Shown: one piece after another, positions 364 to 8,182 of the stretch
How the letters are laid out: every line of letters begins with the position of its first letter
Position numbering within the stretch: the first letter of the stretch is position 1
Virus record (IMG/VR): IMGVR_UViG_2695420732_000017
Length of the DNA: 8,182 nt
Source of the DNA: a virus
Lineage: Duplodnaviria > Heunggongvirae > Uroviricota > Caudoviricetes
Reading direction: 5' to 3' (one strand)
Translations under genes and position numbers: made by a program
The notes under the pieces: generated by a model
What the model saw: only the letters and a program-made list of their open reading frames with translations
Databases searched by the model: none
Told to the model about the DNA's origin: nothing

Positions 364-430
364 GTTCACAGATAAAATACTCTCCAGGAAACCCGGGGCG
401 GTTCAGTTTGCCAATTTTTGCGATATAAAT
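1..430 (+). mobile_element. Right-hand portion of an IS3-family insertion sequence; exact terminal inverted repeat not determinable from one end
   Basis: The transposase gene ends at 363 and an IS3-type terminal repeat normally follows within a few tens of bp. The composition switches to AT-rich by about 410-430. The boundary is approximate because the other IS end is not available to pair with. Confidence 0.45.
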
Positions 431-483
431 TTCAATGTCCGAAGAACCATTAATTGTTAATTGATTCTGTATAAGGTATTAAC

Positions 484-1581
484 ATGACAATTTCATATAT
501 TCCTATTCTGAAAGCGAAACGTTCTGAGTTATCAGCTTTATCGCAGCTATCCATTGAAAAGAAATCAAAAATTTTGCCATTACTCGAAATTGAACCAGTG
601 CCAATTGACCCTGATTCAGGTATTGCCTTAAAGAGTTATAACGAGACTCTTATAGAGTTCGGAAAGAAAGTCTCAAAATCTTGCTCAGATATGCAAGGTG
701 TTTATATTGATGGATTATTAATTGAAGAGCATTTTATTTCTCCTGAAGATCATTACCCTATAATAAATGCGGTTAATCAAGTTAGAGATATGGGGATAAG
801 AGTTATTCCTGTCAGTTCACCAACTCGCCCATCTAACTATAAAAGAGCGATTGATGAATTAATGCAGAATGAAATATGCTTGAGATTAACCACGTTAGAT
901 CTGGTTAACCCACAATTAATAACGCATTACATTAATCATCTGGGAATTCCTTTATCAAATATTGATATAATTATTGACTTAAGAGATGAGTTAACCGAGG
1001 ATAAAATTAATTCCGGCGAACTATATACTTTGGCAATGGGATTGATAAACAATCTGGCGCACCTCAATGAATACAGAAAAGTGATTCTTTCTGGGGGTTC
1101 ATTTCCTACAGATCTCAGTGATATTTCTGTTGGTCTATATTCTCAACCTCGAATCGAGTGGATTTTATGGCAGAGTTTAATGAATAGAAAAGAACTTGCC
1201 AGAAATGTGATTTATAGTGATTATGGAGTACAGCACCCCGACTTTAATAGGCTTTCGACGCGATTCCCTAGCGTATCTGCCAGCGTCAGATACTCTGGAG
1301 ATAATGACTTTTGGGTATTTCGAGGAAGAGTAGCTAATCGCTTTGGTTATGAACAATATGGTAAACATAGTGAGGATATTCTTGCTCATCGAGAATATTC
1401 AGGGCCTACATTCTGTGCGGGAGATAGAGACATAGAATATTATGCAAACGAGTATCAAGCCTACAAAGCCAATCCCTCTGGTAACTATAAATTTGGTAGC
1501 CCAGAGGTATGGCGTAGGATTGGGCAAAACCATCACATAACTAAGGTTGTTGAGCAACTCGCCACTCTTTACGGGCTTTAA
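484..1581 (+). CDS. Beta-protein-like (Pfam Beta_protein / NCBI sce7725-family-like) protein of unknown function, 365 aa
   Basis: ATG at 484 is the first start after an in-frame TAA (472-474), with an AAGG Shine-Dalgarno 7 nt upstream. Clean 365-codon ORF, strongly AT-rich (roughly one-third G+C by eye). The N-terminus TISYIPILKAKRSELSAL matches, from memory, the hallmark start of the Beta-protein / sce7725 family. The family call is unverified. Confidence 0.75.
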   Translation: MTISYIPILKAKRSELSALSQLSIEKKSKILPLLEIEPVPIDPDSGIALKSYNETLIEFGKKVSKSCSDMQGVYIDGLLIEEHFISPEDHYPIINAVNQVRDMGIRVIPVSSPTRPSNYKRAIDELMQNEICLRLTTLDLVNPQLITHYINHLGIPLSNIDIIIDLRDELTEDKINSGELYTLAMGLINNLAHLNEYRKVILSGGSFPTDLSDISVGLYSQPRIEWILWQSLMNRKELARNVIYSDYGVQHPDFNRLSTRFPSVSASVRYSGDNDFWVFRGRVANRFGYEQYGKHSEDILAHREYSGPTFCAGDRDIEYYANEYQAYKANPSGNYKFGSPEVWRRIGQNHHITKVVEQLATLYGL

Positions 1582-2119
1582 GTTTAACTCGAACAGCTTC
1601 ACGAAGCTCGCCAACATCCATACTATTGGCGAGTTTTGACCATAAGACGCGTTTAGGTTTATTTTTCAAATTCTGTAGCTCCCCTACATCACTTAATAGG
1701 GAAAGCAATTCATCTTTCCAAAGAAGCATTGTTAAGGAAAGTTTGTCCACTTGTGGATTCAACTTGCTAGTTCGAATTGTTTTTAAATGGATACCTTGCC
1801 GTGCACCTTGCGTAACTTGCTTTATCCCCCACCATGATGGAACTATGCTTAAAGCATCATAAAGATGGCAATCAGAGACAACCAAAGTTACTTTATCCAT
1901 CACTGATGAGTAATGTTGCACCTGCGCTGGTAATCTGAGCAAGTTATCACTCTTGCTCTTCAACTCATAACCATGTATAAGCCCATTGATCACTGCTATA
2001 TCAGCTCTGCTAGCCCCTAGATTCATCGTAAACTCATCAATGATTAGGGTGTCAGGATCTTTATGATGATCTCTCAGAATCTTGGCATGCACAGCCTTTC
2101 TTACATCAATGTCTCTCAT
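1541..2119 (-). CDS. PD-(D/E)xK nuclease-fold protein (sce7726-family-like), 192 aa
   Basis: Open frame on the minus strand with ATG at 2119-2117 and an in-frame stop six codons upstream; stop codon at 1543-1541. N-terminal motifs IIDEF (E29), RADIAV (D40) and GYELKS (E52-x-K54) have the spacing of a restriction-endonuclease-like PD-(D/E)xK core. AT-rich like its neighbour. Shine-Dalgarno is weak. Confidence 0.75.
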   Translation of the reverse strand: MRDIDVRKAVHAKILRDHHKDPDTLIIDEFTMNLGASRADIAVINGLIHGYELKSKSDNLLRLPAQVQHYSSVMDKVTLVVSDCHLYDALSIVPSWWGIKQVTQGARQGIHLKTIRTSKLNPQVDKLSLTMLLWKDELLSLLSDVGELQNLKNKPKRVLWSKLANSMDVGELREAVRVKLKARKEWRVAQQP

Positions 2120-2158
2120 ACCATAGTTGCGCTTTCATCGACTCTCTCAAGCCATGAT

Positions 2159-2167
2159 TCTATATCA
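2159..2167 (-). promoter_or_regulatory. Possible extended -10 element (TGaTATAGA) for an independent promoter of the nuclease-like gene
   Basis: On the minus strand the sequence TGATATAGAAT lies about 40 nt upstream of the ATG at 2119, inside a 305-bp ORF-free gap. No convincing -35 was found, so this is tentative. Confidence 0.3.
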
Positions 2168-2424
2168 TGGTTCGCATGAATGCCATTTGATATGACCAGT
2201 GGTTAAACATTGCACAGAAAAGTGGATGTGTATTTTAACAAAAGCAATGACGGCTAACCATGTTGGTATGTCGATAAAATGTTTCAACGTAAGCATTATC
2301 TGTTCCGCCCTTTCAGACGGCCTCCTGATGTTCTGAGGGTGCAGAATCCCTCCGGTTAAGGATTTAATAAAAATCGTTTCTGATTTAAATCTTCAGTATT
2401 TAGTTGTTAGTCGGTTTATAGCCT

Positions 2425-2736
2425 TTATGCTTCGGCCTTATTTCTCAGCCATACACAAACCGGGCCATCTTCGGTGTCATGTATTGAACCAATAAACCAT
2501 CCATTGCCCTCTGGTCGTTCCGGTTCCCATGCAGAAATATCAGCATCACACGCATCAAGGTCAGCACATCCTTCATCTCTGAAGCAGAGGACGTATTGAA
2601 GATTATTTTCCTCCATCCAGGCGTTAAACTCTTCCGTTGAAATATATTCCCGACCGTCACAGAATTTTTCATATTCAGGATGCGTCCAGCAGCCATATTC
2701 ATCACGTACTACTGGTATTTCTTTAATTTCATTCAT
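2425..2736 (-). CDS. Hypothetical acidic, Cys-containing prophage protein, 103 aa
   Basis: ATG at 2736 sits inside the sequence ATGAATGA, overlapping the stop of the upstream gene by 8 nt (translational coupling). G+C near half, like the prophage backbone. No recognisable domain. Confidence 0.7.
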   Translation of the reverse strand: MNEIKEIPVVRDEYGCWTHPEYEKFCDGREYISTEEFNAWMEENNLQYVLCFRDEGCADLDACDADISAWEPERPEGNGWFIGSIHDTEDGPVCVWLRNKAEA

Positions 2737-2983
2737 TTCTGTTCTCCCACGTTTTCAGACTTTCACCACAGAACGGACAAAATGAAACCCGAACTGGTAA
2801 TTTAGAAAATTCACCGGAACGCAACATCACAAAATCAGGACCGCGAGTTAAACTCTCATTCCAGATTTTGTATATCAGCAGACCTTTTCGCATCGTGTAT
2901 TCAGCATCATGCTCAAGGGACTTTGCCAGTGCTGCACATGGTTCTATCTTGTTGCCATTAACCTGGCATTTTGATTCACTCAC
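2729..2983 (-). CDS. Hypothetical small protein with a C-terminal CPFCG zinc-ribbon-like motif, 84 aa
   Basis: GTG start at 2983 overlaps the TGA of the upstream gene (GTGA) and is preceded by a strong GAGGAGG Shine-Dalgarno 7 nt upstream. Cys residues at positions 6, 16, 69 and 72. Confidence 0.65.
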   Translation of the reverse strand: MSESKCQVNGNKIEPCAALAKSLEHDAEYTMRKGLLIYKIWNESLTRGPDFVMLRSGEFSKLPVRVSFCPFCGESLKTWENRNE

Positions 2984-3402
2984 CGCACCACCTCCTCAAA
3001 ATTCCCCTGATAAAACGCCAGTACGCGCTGCATAACTTCGCTCTTCCGGCACTCGAGACAGATTATGTTCAGACGCCTGTCGTAGCGGCGTATTTCGCCA
3101 TCTGGTAATGACCAGATAAGGTCCGGATCAACCGCAGATGGTTTCTTCAGCTTTGCCCTTGAGAGTTTTTTGCGGGCATTTTGCCAGTCTTTACGAGCCT
3201 GTTCAGACGGGAATAACCCGTAGCCAGAATTGTATACATCGCCACTGGCAACCAGCTCTCTGGCCAGAACGCTCATCAGATATCTTGTTGCCCCAGTTTT
3301 AGTTTCCAGTTGTCGTAACGTCTCGCGCCCACTCTGGCGTACGAGTTCAACAACCTGCCCTTTAATTTTTTCCCGCTCTTCTTGTGTAAAAACTTTTGCC
3401 AC
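2980..3402 (-). CDS. Hypothetical prophage protein, 140 aa, basic
   Basis: GTG start at 3402 is preceded by AGGAGG with a 4-nt spacer. The gene lies directly downstream of the replication initiator in the same operon orientation. Confidence 0.7.
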   Translation of the reverse strand: MAKVFTQEEREKIKGQVVELVRQSGRETLRQLETKTGATRYLMSVLARELVASGDVYNSGYGLFPSEQARKDWQNARKKLSRAKLKKPSAVDPDLIWSLPDGEIRRYDRRLNIICLECRKSEVMQRVLAFYQGNFEEVVR

Positions 3403-3442
3403 AAGCCCTCCTGAAAGTTACCTCATGACCAGAAATTAACAC

Positions 3443-4405
3443 TTACCCCCTGAAGCCCGGCGGAATTTCAGTGTCCGGTTCAGAAATGTGATTCACGCAA
3501 CGCTGCGCAGGCGAACGCCCCAGGCGGATAACCAGTTCATCCCATTTTTCCCGGAGTTTTGCCGGACTCATGATGTTTTTTACCCAGAACGAATCCCGCT
3601 GGAGACGCCCAAACATTTCACAAATTTGTCTGTGAGTTCTGCCATCCAGCATCCGCATTGTGCGAACGTCATTGGCCCATGCTGTCCAGTTGGGTTCTTT
3701 CGGTCTAGTGATCTCGCCATCATAGCTGGCCGCCTGCTCGTAAAGACTCACGATTCGTCCCCAGATCCACTGTGCGCACACCAAATCTTCCTGACTTCCC
3801 CACTGGCGTTTTTTCGCACTGAACACAACCGCGTCAGGGTGTCGGGTTAAAAAATCCTGTTCAGCCGTCTGCGGGTCCGGTTGCGAAGCGTCCGGACAAG
3901 AAGATCTTTTATCTGACGGATCAGGTTTTAATACTGACGGATCGGGGTCAATCATCGCCCCCCTAATCGGCAGTTTTTTATCAACAGTTGATCCATCAAA
4001 ATTTGACGGGTCAACCGTTGAGGGGGCAATATTTGACGGGTCAACTGTTAACTGGTCATTTTTTGCCGGGCTAATTTTTCTTTTCGGTTTATATGACTCA
4101 CGCGCCGCCGCAGCTGCTGCTTCGAGTTTTTCCACATTAAGCCGATAGATATTGCTTACATTACGCCCACCGACCTTACGCTCTTCCTTCGTCAGCCAGC
4201 CCTCTTTCGCCAGTTCTGCAATAGCCGATTTCACTGTGGATTCACTTCTTGCACCGATCTGACGCCGGATAGTTTCAATGGCAGGCCATGACACACCCTC
4301 GTCATTGCTGTAGTCTGCAAGACGGGCCATAACCGCCACCCTGGATAAGATCATGCCGGTGAAGGCGCACCCTTCCCAGACAAGACCATGAAGCTTGCTG
4401 CTCAT
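3443..4405 (-). CDS. Phage replication initiator, lambda O-like architecture (N-terminal winged-helix/HTH, repeat-containing linker, C-terminal domain)
   Basis: 320-codon ORF from the ATG at 4405 (a GTG at 4420 is an alternative start), with a GGGGG Shine-Dalgarno just upstream. The N-terminal segment WPAIETIRRQIGARSESTVKSAIAELAKEGWL is HTH-like. The central region encodes repeated TVDPSN / DPDPS units from DNA direct repeats, as seen in lambda O where the origin lies inside the gene. Confidence 0.8.
   Translation of the reverse strand: MSSKLHGLVWEGCAFTGMILSRVAVMARLADYSNDEGVSWPAIETIRRQIGARSESTVKSAIAELAKEGWLTKEERKVGGRNVSNIYRLNVEKLEAAAAAARESYKPKRKISPAKNDQLTVDPSNIAPSTVDPSNFDGSTVDKKLPIRGAMIDPDPSVLKPDPSDKRSSCPDASQPDPQTAEQDFLTRHPDAVVFSAKKRQWGSQEDLVCAQWIWGRIVSLYEQAASYDGEITRPKEPNWTAWANDVRTMRMLDGRTHRQICEMFGRLQRDSFWVKNIMSPAKLREKWDELVIRLGRSPAQRCVNHISEPDTEIPPGFRG
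3912..4095. repeat. Putative replication origin: four direct iterons (core TGACGG(A/G)TC) plus an adjacent AT-rich stretch, inside the initiator gene
   Basis: TGACGGATC occurs at about 3914 and 3935; the longer TTTGACGGGTCAAC(C/T)GTT occurs at about 4001 and 4031. An AT-rich tract (about 4055-4095: cattttttgccgggctaatttttcttttcggtttatatga) lies beside them. Confidence 0.55.
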
Positions 4406-4427
4406 AAAACCCCCGAACACCGTGCTT

Positions 4428-4853
4428 TTAGTGCATCACCACAGCATTCCCTGCCGGGCCGCCGCGATTCATCTGGTCATACAAAACAACCGCTGACGCA
4501 ACAAAATCGTCGACATCCTTCACCAGCCGATCCCGCCGTTCGACAATCTCCCGGTAATACTCAGAGCTGTGACTGCGCATACGGGCCACCAGCAGAGGCG
4601 GCATTGCCTTTTCGATCGCCGGTAACAGAGCCTGAATTTTTTCAACAGCATCAGGGGTGTCTTTATCCAGCCAACGGAAAATTTTCTGTGTATTACGGGC
4701 CAGGGCTTCCGGATGGCTGTCGTCGTACAGTTCAGGGAACGTCATCCCCAGTTCGAAATAAGTCCGGGCTATTTCAGCTGCAGGAACTTTCTCACCATCA
4801 GGGTATGCCCAGGCATTCATCGCCATGCGGATGTGCTCATGTTTGATTTTCAT
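4428..4853 (-). CDS. ydaT: YdaT-like prophage protein (recalled as DUF1019 / Toxin_YdaT family), 141 aa
   Basis: The N-terminus MKIKHEHI and C-terminus ...VVMH match my recollection of Rac prophage YdaT. The gene overlaps the upstream ydaS-like gene by 17 nt. Confidence 0.7.
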   Translation of the reverse strand: MKIKHEHIRMAMNAWAYPDGEKVPAAEIARTYFELGMTFPELYDDSHPEALARNTQKIFRWLDKDTPDAVEKIQALLPAIEKAMPPLLVARMRSHSSEYYREIVERRDRLVKDVDDFVASAVVLYDQMNRGGPAGNAVVMH

Positions 4854-5160
4854 GAATCATTTGCCTCTTGATGCTTCGGGTATGATCGTTTTCGTCATTT
4901 GGTTGCTTCATCGACATATTCTGCGAATAACATGACGAGCGTCGTAAGTATGTCCAATCAACATCAGGACGAAGTTCTTCACACAGGACACCACCTTTTG
5001 TTGCTCGTTCAATCGCAGGACATCTCTCAGCAGGCAACTGACGTACACCTTTGATCCATTGATTTACGCTTGGAGGAGATACACCTAAAAGCCTAGCCAT
5101 TGCTGATTGCCCACCGACAACAGCACAAGCTCGTTTGAATGAATAGTTATCTTTTTTCAT
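4837..5160 (-). CDS. ydaS: YdaS-like Cro/CI-type HTH protein (Cro analogue), 107 aa
   Basis: ATG at 5160 is preceded by GGAG with an 8-nt spacer; the ORF track's longer version begins at a GTG at 5181 with no ribosome-binding site. The HTH segment QSAMARLLGVSPPSVNQWIKG is typical of YdaS-like proteins. The gene is divergent from the repressor gene. Confidence 0.75.
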   Translation of the reverse strand: MKKDNYSFKRACAVVGGQSAMARLLGVSPPSVNQWIKGVRQLPAERCPAIERATKGGVLCEELRPDVDWTYLRRSSCYSQNMSMKQPNDENDHTRSIKRQMIHENQT

Positions 5161-5187
5161 CGAATGAACTCCAAAAAACACGCAACA

Positions 5188-5231
5188 ATATTAGGCTTAG
5201 CCTAATACAATTGTCAATAGGCTATGCCTAA
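5188..5231 (-). promoter_or_regulatory. Leftward sigma70-type promoter with operator half-sites (TTAGGC...GCCTAA) for the ydaS-ydaT-replication operon
   Basis: Read on the minus strand: TTAGGCATAGCCTA, then TTGACA (-35, plus-strand 5212-5217), an 18-nt spacer containing TTAGGCTAAGCC, then TAATAT (-10, plus-strand 5188-5193). A third operator-like site (attgcctaa) sits at about 5248-5256, near the repressor gene start. Confidence 0.55.
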
Positions 5232-5284
5232 CACATCGAGAGTAGGGATTGCCTAACGCGATGCGCATAGGAGACTATTAAGCA

Positions 5285-5761
5285 ATGCTTAGTGGTAAAG
5301 ACTTAGGCCGAGCGATAGAGCAGGCCATTAACAAAAAAATTGCATCAGGAGCCGTCAAATCAAAGGCGGAAATCGCACGTCATTTCAAAGTCCAACCACC
5401 ATCAATCCATGACTGGATTAAGAAAGGTTCGATAAGTAAAGACAAACTTCCAGAACTATGGCGTTTCTTTTCTGATGTGGTTGGTCCAGAGCATTGGGGG
5501 CTTAACGAATACCCCATACCAACCCCATCCACTTCAGATACAAAAAGTGAACTTTTAGACATAAACAGCCTTTATCAAGCCGCCTCTGATGAAAAAAGAG
5601 CAATTGTGGCTTTCCTCTTATCTGGAAATGCTACGGAGCCTAGTTGGGTTGATCATGACGTTCGCGCCTACATTGCCGCAATGGAAATGAAGGTAGCTAA
5701 CTATCTGAAAAATCAAGAATCAAAACGGAAAAGCCAGAACATCACCAAGACAGGAACTTAA
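5285..5761 (+). CDS. Prophage repressor, HTH DNA-binding protein (RacR/DicA-type functional analogue), 158 aa
   Basis: ATG at 5285 with AGGAG 11 nt upstream. HTH segment KSKAEIARHFKVQPPSIHDWIKKGSIS. Divergent from the Cro-like gene and flanked by operator-bearing promoters. The length (158 aa) fits my recollection of RacR, but the assignment is not verified. Confidence 0.8.
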   Translation: MLSGKDLGRAIEQAINKKIASGAVKSKAEIARHFKVQPPSIHDWIKKGSISKDKLPELWRFFSDVVGPEHWGLNEYPIPTPSTSDTKSELLDINSLYQAASDEKRAIVAFLLSGNATEPSWVDHDVRAYIAAMEMKVANYLKNQESKRKSQNITKTGT

Positions 5762-5775
5762 ACTTATATGGTCCG

Positions 5776-5797
5776 ACGGGAAATTCCTAGTTCCCGT
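5776..5797 (+). terminator. Hairpin immediately after the repressor stop codon (7-bp perfect stem ACGGGAA/TTCCCGT, 8-nt loop); possible terminator or processing site
   Basis: A perfect inverted repeat lies 15 nt after the TAA at 5759-5761. There is no clear U-tract, so intrinsic-terminator function is uncertain. Confidence 0.3.
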
Positions 5798-5855
5798 TAG
5801 TTAACTCCTACTACCTCTCCCACAAACCATCACCTATTAGGTCGCGCCCAAATTA

Positions 5856-5898
5856 TTAGGCATAGCCTATTGACAAGTAATTAGGCATTTCCTATAGT
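5856..5898 (+). promoter_or_regulatory. Rightward near-consensus sigma70 promoter with two operator sites, driving the dicB-type operon
   Basis: TTAGGCATAGCCTA (5856-5869) abuts TTGACA (5870-5875); a 17-nt spacer contains TTAGGCATTTCC; then TATAGT (5893-5898). The 20-mer ttaggcatagcctattgaca is an exact inverted copy of 5212-5231. Confidence 0.6.
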
Positions 5899-6079
5899 TT
5901 TCCCATACCAACCCATCCCGTCCCACACAATACAGGGCAATACCTCGAGTTACCAGGCAGTGGTCAGGGGTTAAGTAGCCAGCCCGAGGCGTAAGAACAT
6001 GACGGCAGGGTTCAACTTTAATAACTATGCAGCAGGTTTTTGTTCCGCTACCCCGGCGTTAAGGGGAAATGAGGTCAGC

Positions 6080-6235
6080 ATGGATACTATCGATCTTGGC
6101 AACAGCGAATCTCTGGTATGTGGCGTGTTCCCCAACCAGGACGGTACGTTCACCGCGATGACGTATACCAAAAGCAAAACGTTTAAAACCGAATCTGGAG
6201 CGCGTCGCTGGCTGGAAAGAAATTCAGGTGGGTGA
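6080..6235 (+). CDS. ydfA: YdfA-like small prophage protein, 51 aa
   Basis: ATG at 6080 with GAGG 5 nt upstream. The ORF track's N-terminal extension back to 5999 lacks a ribosome-binding site. Size and position (first gene after the repressor-controlled promoter) match the Qin dicB operon order as I recall it: ydfA 51 aa, ydfB 42 aa, ydfC 72 aa. Confidence 0.6.
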   Translation: MDTIDLGNSESLVCGVFPNQDGTFTAMTYTKSKTFKTESGARRWLERNSGG

Positions 6236-6236
6236 T

Positions 6237-6365
6237 ATGGATTTCGACACAATCATGGAAAAGGCTTACGAAGAATACTTCGAAGGCCTTGCCGAAGGCG
6301 AAGAAGCTCTCAGCTTCAGCGAATTTAAACAGGCGCTTTCCAGCTCGGCAAAATCTAACGGCTGA
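6237..6365 (+). CDS. ydfB: YdfB-like small acidic protein, 42 aa
   Basis: ATG at 6237 is 1 nt after the ydfA-like stop (tightly coupled). The ORF was missed by the six-frame track because of its size. Translation: MDFDTIMEKAYEEYFEGLAEGEEALSFSEFKQALSSSAKSNG. Confidence 0.5.
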   Translation: MDFDTIMEKAYEEYFEGLAEGEEALSFSEFKQALSSSAKSNG

Positions 6366-6395
6366 TAAGCGAAAACAGCACCGCGAGGAATCAGT

Positions 6396-6614
6396 ATGCA
6401 GAAACGAGAACCCGTCATCATCGCGCCAGACTATACCGATGATGAACTTTATGAGTGGATGCACCAGAAAATTAATGCAGCGCAGGATCTGAAATGGGCC
6501 AATGAAGCCAGGGCTAAGCAGGCTGAAAATCTGTCCGCTCTGGAGCAGGATATCACCAATCTGGAAAAAGCAGCGGCATTAAGCATTGCCAGCATGATTA
6601 CATACCCGCGTTAA
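6396..6614 (+). CDS. ydfC: YdfC-like protein, 72 aa
   Basis: ATG at 6396 with GAGG 6-7 nt upstream. Its 72-aa size and position before the DicF locus match the Qin dicB operon. Confidence 0.6.
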   Translation: MQKREPVIIAPDYTDDELYEWMHQKINAAQDLKWANEARAKQAENLSALEQDITNLEKAAALSIASMITYPR

Positions 6615-6953
6615 TAGCTAACCAACGAAGCTAAGGTTGGTAATTAAGGAGTTCTCCACGGGTAAAGTGGAGTGCGTGCGCCGGACACGGGTGAACATCC
6701 GGCACTGACAGTTTACTGAAAGGATATTTCTCTGAAAAGTCAGAGCATAACGCGAAAGCGCACGGCGAGGTTGCTGGTTCATAGATAGCCTGTCGTTAAA
6801 TTTTCGTCGACCGTGCGCTTCCGGTTGTGGCACTCCGCGAAATGGCGCGGCGGTAAGTATGGCGGGGTTATTTCTTCCCCGTTGAGGACACCGGGTTGTC
6901 AGGTTGACCATACGCTTAAGTGACAACCCCGCTGCAACGCCCTCTGTTATCAA

Positions 6954-7012
6954 TTTTCTGGTGACGTTTGGCGGTATCAGTTTTACTCCGTGGCTGCTCT
7001 GCCGCCCTTTTT
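6954..7012 (+). ncRNA. dicF: DicF small regulatory RNA (Hfq-dependent antisense sRNA of the dicB operon) with its rho-independent terminator
   Basis: The sequence tttctggtgacgtttggcggtatcagttttactccgtggctgctctgccgcccttttt matches my recollection of E. coli DicF almost base for base. The 3' end has a GC stem (GGCGG...CCGCC) followed by TTTTT. It sits between the ydfC-like gene and dicB, as in Qin. Confidence 0.75.
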
Positions 7013-7181
7013 AAAGTGAATTTTGTGATGCGGTGAATGCGGCTATGCGCACGCGGAACAGTTAAAACCAAAAACAGTGTTATGGGTGGATTCTCTGTAT
7101 CCGGCGTTAATTGTTAACTGGTTAACGTCACCTGGAGGCACCAGGCACTGCATCACAAAATTCATTGTTGAGGACGCGATA

Positions 7182-7370
7182 ATGGAAACGTTATTACCAA
7201 ACGTTAATACGTCTGAAGGTTGTTTTGATATTGGTGTTCTGCTCAGTAACCGGGAGTTTACTGAAGATGCCATTAAGATGAGAAAATATGAACCTTATCT
7301 TCTCAATGATAATTCCATACTTTCCAGAATTGCCCTTCTTGAACTTGGTATTATCGGAGAACAGCAGTGA
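7182..7370 (+). CDS. dicB: DicB-like cell-division inhibitor (MinC-dependent), 62 aa
   Basis: ATG at 7182 with AGGA 7 nt upstream. The N-terminus METLLPNVNTSEGCF matches my recollection of DicB. The 62-aa size and position directly after DicF agree. Confidence 0.7.
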   Translation: METLLPNVNTSEGCFDIGVLLSNREFTEDAIKMRKYEPYLLNDNSILSRIALLELGIIGEQQ

Positions 7371-7555
7371 CTTCAGCGTTTGCACTGGTGATGACCGTTT
7401 TTCTTATAACGGGTGAGCCACAAAATGTGATTACCGGAATTTATGACAGTAAGTCATCCTGCATTCAGGTAAGGGACGAACAAAAAATCCCCGGTGAATG
7501 CCTCCCGTTAAAAAAAGTATTGCTGTACCTGAATAACGAAACGCCGGCTGGATAA
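7367..7555 (+). CDS. ydfD: YdfD-like small membrane protein (lysis-associated in Qin), about 62 aa
   Basis: GTG at 7367 overlaps the dicB TGA (GTGA coupling); an alternative ATG lies at 7391. Hydrophobic N-terminal segment AFALVMTVFLITG. Position after dicB matches Qin ydfD. Confidence 0.55.
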   Translation: MTSAFALVMTVFLITGEPQNVITGIYDSKSSCIQVRDEQKIPGECLPLKKVLLYLNNETPAG

Positions 7556-7650
7556 ACCTCCAGCCATATTAACGCCATACCAACGGATTAAAAATGCCAG
7601 CAATGGCAGGGATTTATTCATCCTTAAATCTGTCATGAGGTTAAAACAAA

Positions 7651-8182
7651 ATGAGTAAAGTCTTTATTTGCGCCGCTATTCCTGACGAACTGGCAACAAG
7701 GGAAGAAGGCGCTGTGGCTGTAGCCACAGCCATTGAAGCTGGCGACGAACGCCGTGCTCGAGCAAAATTTCACTGGCAGTTCCTGGAACATTATCCGGCT
7801 GCTCAGGACTGCGCTTATAAATTTATTGTCTGCGAGGATAAACCTGGCATACCCCGCCCTGCCCTCGATTCATGGGATGCTGAATATATGCAGGAAAACC
7901 GCTGGGATGAGGAGTCTGCTTCTTTTGTCCCGGTTGAGACTGAATCCGATCCGATGAACGTCACTTTTGACAAGCTGGCCCCTGAAGTACAGAACGCTGT
8001 CATGGTTAAGTTCGACACATGTGAAAACATCACCGTTGATATGGTGATTAGCGCACAGGAATTGTTGCAGGAAGACATGGCAACATTCGACGGACATATC
8101 GTTGAAGCGTTGATGAAAATGCCAGAAGTTAACGCCATGTATCCGGAGCTTAAGCTGCATGCCATCGGGTGGGTTAAGCATA
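7651..8182 (+). CDS. Hypothetical acidic prophage protein, 3' end beyond the window (at least 177 aa); possibly YdfE-like
   Basis: ATG at 7651 with GAGG 10 nt upstream. Hand translation (MSKVFICAAIPDELATREEG...) runs without a stop to the window end. The six-frame track omits it because it has no stop inside the window. Confidence 0.6.
   Translation, partial: MSKVFICAAIPDELATREEGAVAVATAIEAGDERRARAKFHWQFLEHYPAAQDCAYKFIVCEDKPGIPRPALDSWDAEYMQENRWDEESASFVPVETESDPMNVTFDKLAPEVQNAVMVKFDTCENITVDMVISAQELLQEDMATFDGHIVEALMKMPEVNAMYPELKLHAIGWVKH

Follow-up and report, generated by a model that had tools for sequence, protein, structure and literature searches.

Two outward-facing operator-promoter cassettes flank racR

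The 8,182-nucleotide (nt) stretch of the Caudoviricetes record IMGVR_UViG_2695420732_000017 (hereafter the window, meaning this stretch at its full length) carries a repressor gene, racR, bracketed by two near-identical operator-promoter cassettes that face away from it. This region is very probably a lambdoid immunity switch of the Rac type, in which RacR acts on both outward cassettes and silences both early arms, its binding on the right-hand side being our inference. The tie between the right-hand module and RacR is supported by conservation, by a natural immunity swap and by derepression in Escherichia coli K-12. The layout follows the standard lambdoid design and brings no new principle; its left half is known from K-12, and we found no description of its right half. 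The elements concerned are:

5217-5212 and 5193-5188, minus strand: leftward PydaS-type (PR-like) promoter, -35 TTGACA, 18-nt spacer, -10 TAATAT, 10 of 12 consensus matches
5192-5204: RacR operator dyad TAGGCTTAGCCTA, perfect, located within the leftward spacer and -10, fitting the published RacR consensus (PMC9638921)
5218-5230: RacR operator dyad TAGGCTATGCCTA, perfect, adjoining the leftward -35, in the left copy of the 20/21-mer
5243-5255: RacR operator dyad TAGGGATTGCCTA, one mismatch, upstream of the racR promoter
5271-5276, plus strand: probable -10 (GAGACT) of the leaderless racR promoter, deduced from PracR3 GAGAAT of K-12 (PMC9638921)
5279-5291: degenerate dyad TAAGCAATGCTTA, two mismatches, spanning the racR ATG
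5285-5761, plus strand: racR, 158-residue repressor with an N-terminal helix-turn-helix
5775-5798, plus strand: 8-bp hairpin directly past the racR stop, a weak candidate for a transcript end or insulator
5838-5850: degenerate third right-hand site TAGGTCGCGCCCA, two mismatches, conservation limited to the left half (TTAGGT)
5857-5869: operator dyad TAGGCATAGCCTA, perfect, adjoining the rightward -35, centre at about -42, in the right copy of the 20/21-mer
5870-5875 and 5893-5898, plus strand: rightward (PL-like) promoter, -35 TTGACA, 17-nt spacer, -10 TATAGT, 11 of 12 consensus matches
5882-5894: operator dyad TAGGCATTTCCTA, one mismatch, in the rightward spacer and overlapping the -10, centre at about -17

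An earlier reading made from the letters alone (the sequence-only reading) had pointed to the 20-mer TTAGGCATAGCCTATTGACA on the plus strand at 5856-5875 and its reverse complement at 5212-5231. Both copies are exact, no further match was present in the window at up to three mismatches, and none of 200 dinucleotide-preserving shuffles produced one. As an inverted repeat the match stays perfect over 21 nt (5211-5231 and 5856-5876). Allowing at most one mismatch, the dyad TAGGC-N3-GCCTA occurs five times in the 8182 bases against an expected 0.14, a count that none of 200 shuffles reached, and all five copies are confined to the two modules (three left, two right). Three of them are perfect and two carry one mismatch, each is flanked by T or A, and all therefore agree with the consensus derived from footprints of RacR in K-12, (T/A)TAGGC-n3-GCCTA(T/A), where one operator likewise lies across the racR ATG (PMC9638921).

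The arrangement that had been described, with a dyad fused to TTGACA, a second dyad in the spacer and a good -10, is present on both sides. Of the two dyads in each promoter, the first lies directly against the -35, and the second occupies the spacer and runs into the -10. A supposed third half-site beside the racR start proved to be a real site but not merely half of one, as it forms a full 13-bp dyad with one mismatch (5243-5255), and a fourth, degenerate dyad lies on the ATG itself. The dyad at 5243-5255 is kept in all E. coli-type variants, while other genera have a TAGGAATTGCCTA form. The dyad at 5279-5291 seems to correspond to O3 of K-12, in which the n3 spacer coincides in part with the ATG (PMC9638921), and is likely the site of racR autorepression; other genera have a one-mismatch dyad at the equivalent position. 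In the dyad at 5192-5204, the half-sites are kept among variants and the centre varies (TTA, GAC, TGC, GGC).

About 18 of the 21 repeat positions belong to half-sites, the flanking T/A or the -35, and the free part is the 3-bp dyad centre. These centres differ between left and right elsewhere (ACA and ATA in K-12; ATA and GCA in locus L033). The exact identity of the two copies in the window is thus explained by shared constraint, and a recent duplication is unnecessary.

A consensus promoter scan of 4800-6300 returned only two promoter-like sites, which are the two of the sequence-only reading and fire outward in opposite directions as it had stated. They are credible because of their quality and their register with the dyads, not because of their number. 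The leftward -10 TAATAT is invariant in 39 unique E. coli-type variants, and the rightward -35 TTGACA is altered in one of 24. The rightward transcript is predicted to start near A5905. In K-12, PydaS has the same hexamers as the window (-35 TTGACA, -10 TAATAT), and its -10 was verified by mutation (PMC9638921).

The repressor and its own promoter

The gene between the modules had been called a repressor gene, and it is racR: the product scores 246.8 bits against the NCBIfam equivalog NF049929 (cut-off 200) and is 92% identical to K-12 RacR (b1356). Full-length RacR matched no Pfam family at E<=0.01, hence no Peptidase_S24, so that the self-cleaving domain of CI/LexA-type repressors is lacking. 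The RecA-stimulated S24 cleavage domain is a mark of CI-type repressors, not of the immunity layout. The N-terminal 82 residues gave weak matches of helix-turn-helix type only at E<=1, including YdaS_toxin (E 0.002), and no relatives of RacR were found by sequence in the PDB.

racR on the plus strand and the ydaS-like gene on the minus strand are divergent and 124 bp apart, and the dyads that begin at 5192, 5218, 5243 and 5279 belong to this region. The autoregulation that had been suggested from a site near the racR start is reported for K-12 racR, through sites at its own leaderless promoter (PMC9638921). The racR -10 is GAGACT in the window and most E. coli variants and GAGAAT in K-12, where it was mapped; the -10 of K-12 PracR2 (AGTAAG) is not kept in the window.

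Relative to the racR ATG, the E. coli-type racR-ydaS intergenic region has dyads at -93, -67, -42 and -6, four in all. Three dyads (about -66, -41 and -6) are present in Mixta, Proteus, Klebsiella, Achromobacter and the metagenome-assembled genome (MAG) loci L008 and L012, so that an additional operator repeat, about 26 bp long, has been acquired in the E. coli type.

The hairpin at 5775-5798 was considered as a racR terminator and set aside as a weak candidate, since it folds no better than shuffles (z -0.7) and has no T-run. Its stem has a different sequence in K-12 and in locus L090.

An exact 13-nt direct repeat, CCCATACCAACCC, lies at 5513-5525, in codons of the Pro-rich interdomain linker of racR, and at 5902-5914, at the predicted rightward transcript start. 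K-12 has a similar C-rich pair. The repeat may be chance low complexity, a recombination relic or a Rho-loading sequence.

The cassettes are conserved on both sides of racR homologues

To measure conservation, 92 loci were reduced to 39 unique left-hand and 24 unique right-hand E. coli-type variants, which are phylogenetically related. On the left, 4 of 46 columns in half-sites, -35 and -10 were variable, against 33 of 65 in linkers and dyad centres (Fisher p = 1.9e-6). The same contrast was seen on the right (3 of 30 against 50 of 120; Fisher p = 1.1e-3).

The sequence-only reading had proposed a search of related prophages for the element at both positions, and the outcome favors it. An outward cassette of the form TAGGC-N3-GCCTA, TTGAC(A), 5-7 nt, TAGGC-N3-GCCTA, (A/T)ATAT flanks the repressor gene across genera, from Escherichia to Achromobacter. 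Carriers with the cassette on both sides are E. ruysiae, Mixta, a Pseudomonadota MAG and two Achromobacter loci, in which the right cassette lies 1.6-2.3 kb downstream of the repressor gene, and the pattern holds at 58-78% repressor identity. Of the 97 loci compared, 89 have the core GCCTATTGACA-N6-TAGGC. No right cassette was seen within the 2.5-kb flank in Klebsiella L010, Nitrosomonas L012 and Aeromonas L014.

One Achromobacter sp. locus (L011, 2501-3601) encodes a 366-residue repressor whose first 79 residues are of the RacR type (78% identical over residues 1-77) and whose C-terminus is a Peptidase_S24 domain (E 2.4e-14); its right cassette is 2.3 kb downstream. The S24 domain was seen in the one of the two Achromobacter repressors that was checked. 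Because this fusion has the same dyads, it is the DNA-binding domain of RacR that the operator sequence goes with, regardless of how the protein continues and of how far away the cassette lies. As judged from its sequence, the locus is a case of domain shuffling between SOS-insensitive and SOS-cleavable repressors.

Of 5426 complete E. coli genomes, 530 cover 80% or more of the stretch 4400-6300, and a Rac-type version is carried by the induced phage vB_EcoS-683R6.

A natural swap places both cassettes in one immunity module

4862-5903: immunity module, comprising the ydaS-like gene, the left cassette, racR, the hairpin and the right cassette, bounded by a natural swap

Strain FORC_028 (L097) is 96-99% identical to the window up to 4861 and again from 5904, and the block between them is replaced. 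The edges of the swap are the ydaT/ydaS junction (4861) and the predicted rightward transcript start (5904). The replacement block encodes a different Cro/CI gene and a repressor of the LexA family, and both of its promoters have other dyads, GTAAC-N4-GTTAC (GGTAAC-N4-GTTACC on the right). The swap indicates that racR, ydaS and both cassettes are exchanged together as one module. In lambda, the imm434 and imm21 hybrids define the immunity region in a comparable way.

The window is Rac-type from ydaS to the first 110-140 nt or so of the rightward leader and Qin-type from about 6042, near which a box GTTCCGCYACCC(N)GGCGTTAAGGGGA is common to Rac, Qin and the window. The window prophage reads as a hybrid of Rac immunity and Qin dicBF. 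The joints at 5904 and at about 6042-6067 are probably recombination hot spots for module exchange. Homology to K-12 Qin starts at the box GTTCCGCTACCCCGGCGTTAAGGGGA just before ydfA (about 6042-6067), and this box also precedes ydaG in K-12 Rac.

Published data on RacR and alternative explanations

RacR depletion switches on kilR, recET, ralR, xisR and intR and triggers excision of Rac. The binding of RacR has been studied on the left: electrophoretic mobility shift assays and chromatin immunoprecipitation place it on the racR-ydaS intergenic region (PMC5700373), DNase I protection begins over the ydaS promoter at the lowest RacR concentration, and primer extension mapped a single ydaS start site and the leaderless main racR promoter (PMC9638921). 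The K-12 region as published comprises operators O1-O3, PydaS and PracR1-3, and reporter assays have been published for its left cassette as well. In our comparison this K-12 intergenic region has three good dyads and one degenerate dyad, and a right cassette, TTAGGCATAGCCTATTGACAatcaatTAGGCATTACCTATAGT, lies about 100 bp past the racR stop, ahead of ydaG-ydaF-kilR. We found no paper describing RacR sites downstream of racR, the published operators being the intergenic left-hand ones, and the RacR regulon has been described as not characterized in detail (PMC11014345). Nothing useful was found in the literature on KilS, or on sbcA with the Rac promoter.

Expression data bear on the right arm. 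In K-12, ydaF, ydaG, kilR, ydaE and racC rise 40-70-fold while racR falls (PMC6765115, PMC11014345), and CRISPR interference with racR derepresses the same arm through xisR and intR (bioRxiv 10.64898/2026.09.06.749655). A rise of the right arm while racR falls implies a RacR-repressed promoter downstream of racR, and not read-through from the racR promoter.

Several points weigh against RacR control of the right-hand cassette. No published binding or reporter assay for it was found, including in K-12, and silencing of kil has been attributed to Rho-dependent termination within racR with no separate promoter invoked (PMC4150792). In all E. coli-type variants the dyad at 5882-5894 has a mismatched half-site, TCCTA or ACCTA. 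The two promoter-like sites in the scan are no enrichment over shuffles (mean 2.6), and the unique variants in the conservation test are kin to one another. Lastly, conservation alone does not name the binder, because YdaS may use the same sites.

This last point leads to the alternative that the dyads, at least on the right, are mainly sites for the Cro-type YdaS and that the right arm is under YdaS. YdaS is a helix-turn-helix protein encoded within the swapped module, the weak YdaS_toxin match of the RacR N-terminus suggests related DNA-binding domains, K-12 YdaS autorepresses (PMC9638921), and in CP-933P both PaaR2 and YdaS regulate PL933P (PMC8630535). However, RacR footprints on the left fall on these same dyads (PMC9638921), from locus to locus the dyad sequence goes with the N-terminal domain of RacR, also where that domain is fused to S24 in Achromobacter, and depletion of RacR alone derepresses the arm. 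Shared use by RacR and YdaS, as by lambda CI and Cro, is likely and fits a RacR switch; only exclusive use by YdaS would compete with it, and this we consider unlikely.

Less plausible still is that the right cassette is not a working promoter, and that the division-inhibitor arm is transcribed by read-through from the racR promoter and silenced by Rho termination. A Rho/NusG-dependent terminator (trac) within racR has been credited with kil silencing (PMC4150792), and the hairpin past racR is weak and without a T-run. Read-through nevertheless predicts the opposite of what is seen when racR transcription is strongly down and ydaF, ydaG and kilR go up, and the derepression data argue against the Rho terminator inside racR as the sole explanation. 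The rightward promoter also matches consensus at 11 of 12 positions, its -35 and -10 are kept across genera, and in Achromobacter the cassette is 1.6-2.3 kb away from the repressor gene. We regard this explanation as very improbable.

The 21-nt inverted repeat could finally be a structural relic with no part in regulation, left by a recent duplication, by gene conversion or as the ends of a mobile cassette. In favor of this, the repeat is perfect and brackets a single gene, and the block moves between prophages as a unit, but the idea is scarcely credible: racR is the only full-length gene between the repeats, the identical positions all belong to operator half-sites or to the -35, the left and right dyad centres vary independently of each other (K-12, L033), the pattern persists at 58-78% repressor identity, and the swap edges are a gene junction and a transcription start, not the repeats. 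Duplication and gene conversion were accordingly rejected as causes of the identity, as was a mobile element with terminal inverted repeats, for which there is no transposase in the block and whose supposed repeat is made up of operator plus -35; target-site duplications were not formally searched.

A model for RacR control of both arms

In the Rac-type switch that we favor, RacR would bind the 13-bp TAGGC-N3-GCCTA dyads of two near-identical cassettes directed outward from racR, each consisting of a dyad, TTGACA, 6-7 nt and a dyad overlapping the -10, with the left geometry equal to the right plus one extra spacer base. The left cassette would be the PR equivalent, driving ydaS (Cro-like), ydaT (CII-like) and a putative replication gene, and the right cassette the PL equivalent, driving ydfA-ydfB-ydfC-DicF-dicB and then exonuclease, xis and int. 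With RacR dimers seated near -42 and -17, at 25-26 bp from each other and so at a spacing similar to that of lambda operators, RNA polymerase would be kept off the promoter. The leaderless racR promoter has two further dyads near its -36 and +1 (5243-5255 and 5279-5291), which can explain the autoregulation reported in K-12. One repressor would in this way silence both early arms. RacR binding and repression at the right cassette, the cooperativity of the dimers and the position of the rightward start are the parts that we infer.

More tentatively, RacR oligomers might bridge the cassettes in a loop of about 650 bp around racR, coupling repression of both arms to autoregulation as lambda CI does, with a repressor that SOS does not cleave. 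The cassette would also be a portable unit that has become linked to more than one kind of early operon (kilR-recET in Rac, dicBF here), and DicF and DicB would be under RacR immunity in about one tenth of complete E. coli genomes. We consider this extension possible, though rather doubtful.

For the whole arm that RacR depletion switches on, the evident direct target of RacR is the right cassette, with its defined 13-bp sites. In the window the same cassette heads a dicBF operon, and DicF and DicB here would follow RacR immunity, not DicA.

Genes of the left and right arms

3443-4420, minus strand: helix-turn-helix protein, putative replication initiator (Pfam HTH_36 E 2.2e-6 and a sub-threshold DnaD_N match)
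4428-4853, minus strand: ydaT-like (CII-type), Pfam YdaT_toxin E 8.2e-11, beyond the swapped block
4837-5160, minus strand: ydaS-like (Cro-type), first gene of the leftward operon, Pfam YdaS_toxin E 3.9e-30 and P22_Cro E 1e-8
6080-6235, plus strand: ydfA-like (DUF1391), first gene of the rightward operon
6237-6365 and 6396-6614, plus strand: ydfB and ydfC
6956-7007, plus strand: DicF small RNA, Rfam RF00039, 75 bits against a gathering score of 48
7182-7370, plus strand: dicB, cell-division inhibitor, 61% identical to K-12 DicB and annotated dicB in L001

The leftward promoter had been assigned to ydaS, ydaT and replication genes. Pfam bears out the ydaS-like and ydaT-like genes, and the product of the former is 85% identical to K-12 YdaS; the replication initiator is putative, its role being assigned because of its position. 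The left arm also holds a DUF977 gene on the minus strand. At the far end of this arm (484-2119) is a convergent overlapping pair encoding a "beta family" protein (Pfam Beta_protein E 3.8e-52; PADLOC PD-Lambda-2_C E 1.8e-41) and an sce7726-family protein (NCBIfam E 1.7e-56; PADLOC "cll"), which looks like prophage-borne anti-phage defense cargo. Positions 1-404 contain the C-terminal part of an IS3-family transposase open reading frame (16-363). The best full-length genome match, strain ML775, covers 405-8182 only, so the left end of the window is an insertion sequence or a junction that ML775 lacks.

For the rightward promoter, the dicB-type operon that had been proposed was identified, with ydfA, ydfB, ydfC, the DicF RNA and dicB. 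In the identical locus of DEC9B, dicB is followed by exonuclease, xis and int adjoining potC. DicF was the sole Rfam hit in the whole window at gathering thresholds, with none in the leader or the modules. The rightward leader (5899-6079, about 175 nt) has a C-rich, G-poor start and is kept whatever the immunity type. It is a candidate site for Rho loading or for another kind of leader control. A put- or nut-like RNA in 5905-6083 was dropped, since this stretch folds worse than shuffles (z +1.19). An ATG at 5999 is in frame with ydfA and would add 27 codons to the annotated start at 6080; the ATGACGGC motif at 5999 is kept in K-12 Rac.

Comparison with known systems

K-12 Rac is a close relative on the immunity side. 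RacR and YdaS are orthologous, and the dyad consensus, the -35 and -10 of PydaS, the spacing and the dyad across the racR ATG are shared, as is the right-hand cassette. The two differ in the right arm, which is Qin-type ydfABC-DicF-dicB in the window and ydaG-ydaF-kilR in K-12, and in the probable racR -10 (GAGACT against GAGAAT).

In Qin, where dicBp is repressed by DicA (PMC10448788), the dicC-dicA-dicBp region likewise has its repressor gene between a promoter for a cro-type gene and one for ydfABC-dicF-dicB, and the downstream operon is homologous. RacR gave no BLASTP alignment with DicA, and the promoter and operator DNA of the window does not align with Qin, homology coming only from near 6042.

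CP-933P (PaaR2/YdaS/YdaT) offers a second precedent for a promoter past the repressor with similar operators. PL933P, beyond the repressor operon, has a -35 and -10 identical to those of PR and similar operators OL1-3, its regulation by the repressor and YdaS has been shown, and the repressor mRNA is leaderless (PMC8630535), as in the Rac-type switch. CP-933P differs in its repressor family and operators (GTTTAGTAA-type repeats), and in a toxin-antitoxin pair between the repressor and PL.

Lambda has the order PL/OL, rexBA-cI, PRM/OR/PR, cro, and its operators are spaced 23-24 bp. The repressor in the window lacks the S24 self-cleavage domain, its dyads are 13 bp and not 17 bp long and lie at about -42 and -17 and not over the -35 and -10, there are two clear right-hand sites instead of three, no N gene or nutL was recognized in the window, and the two operators are about 650 bp apart, against about 2.4 kb in lambda. 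The analogy to PL and PR drawn in the sequence-only reading is nonetheless apt, as a divergent cro-type gene, a second set of the same operators beyond the repressor gene with a promoter pointing outward, and module exchange were all found. As in lambda, the repressor gene is codirectional with PL, the operators on both sides are multi-site with centres about 24-26 bp apart, the repressor mRNA has no leader, and the module exchanges as a unit between hybrid phages.

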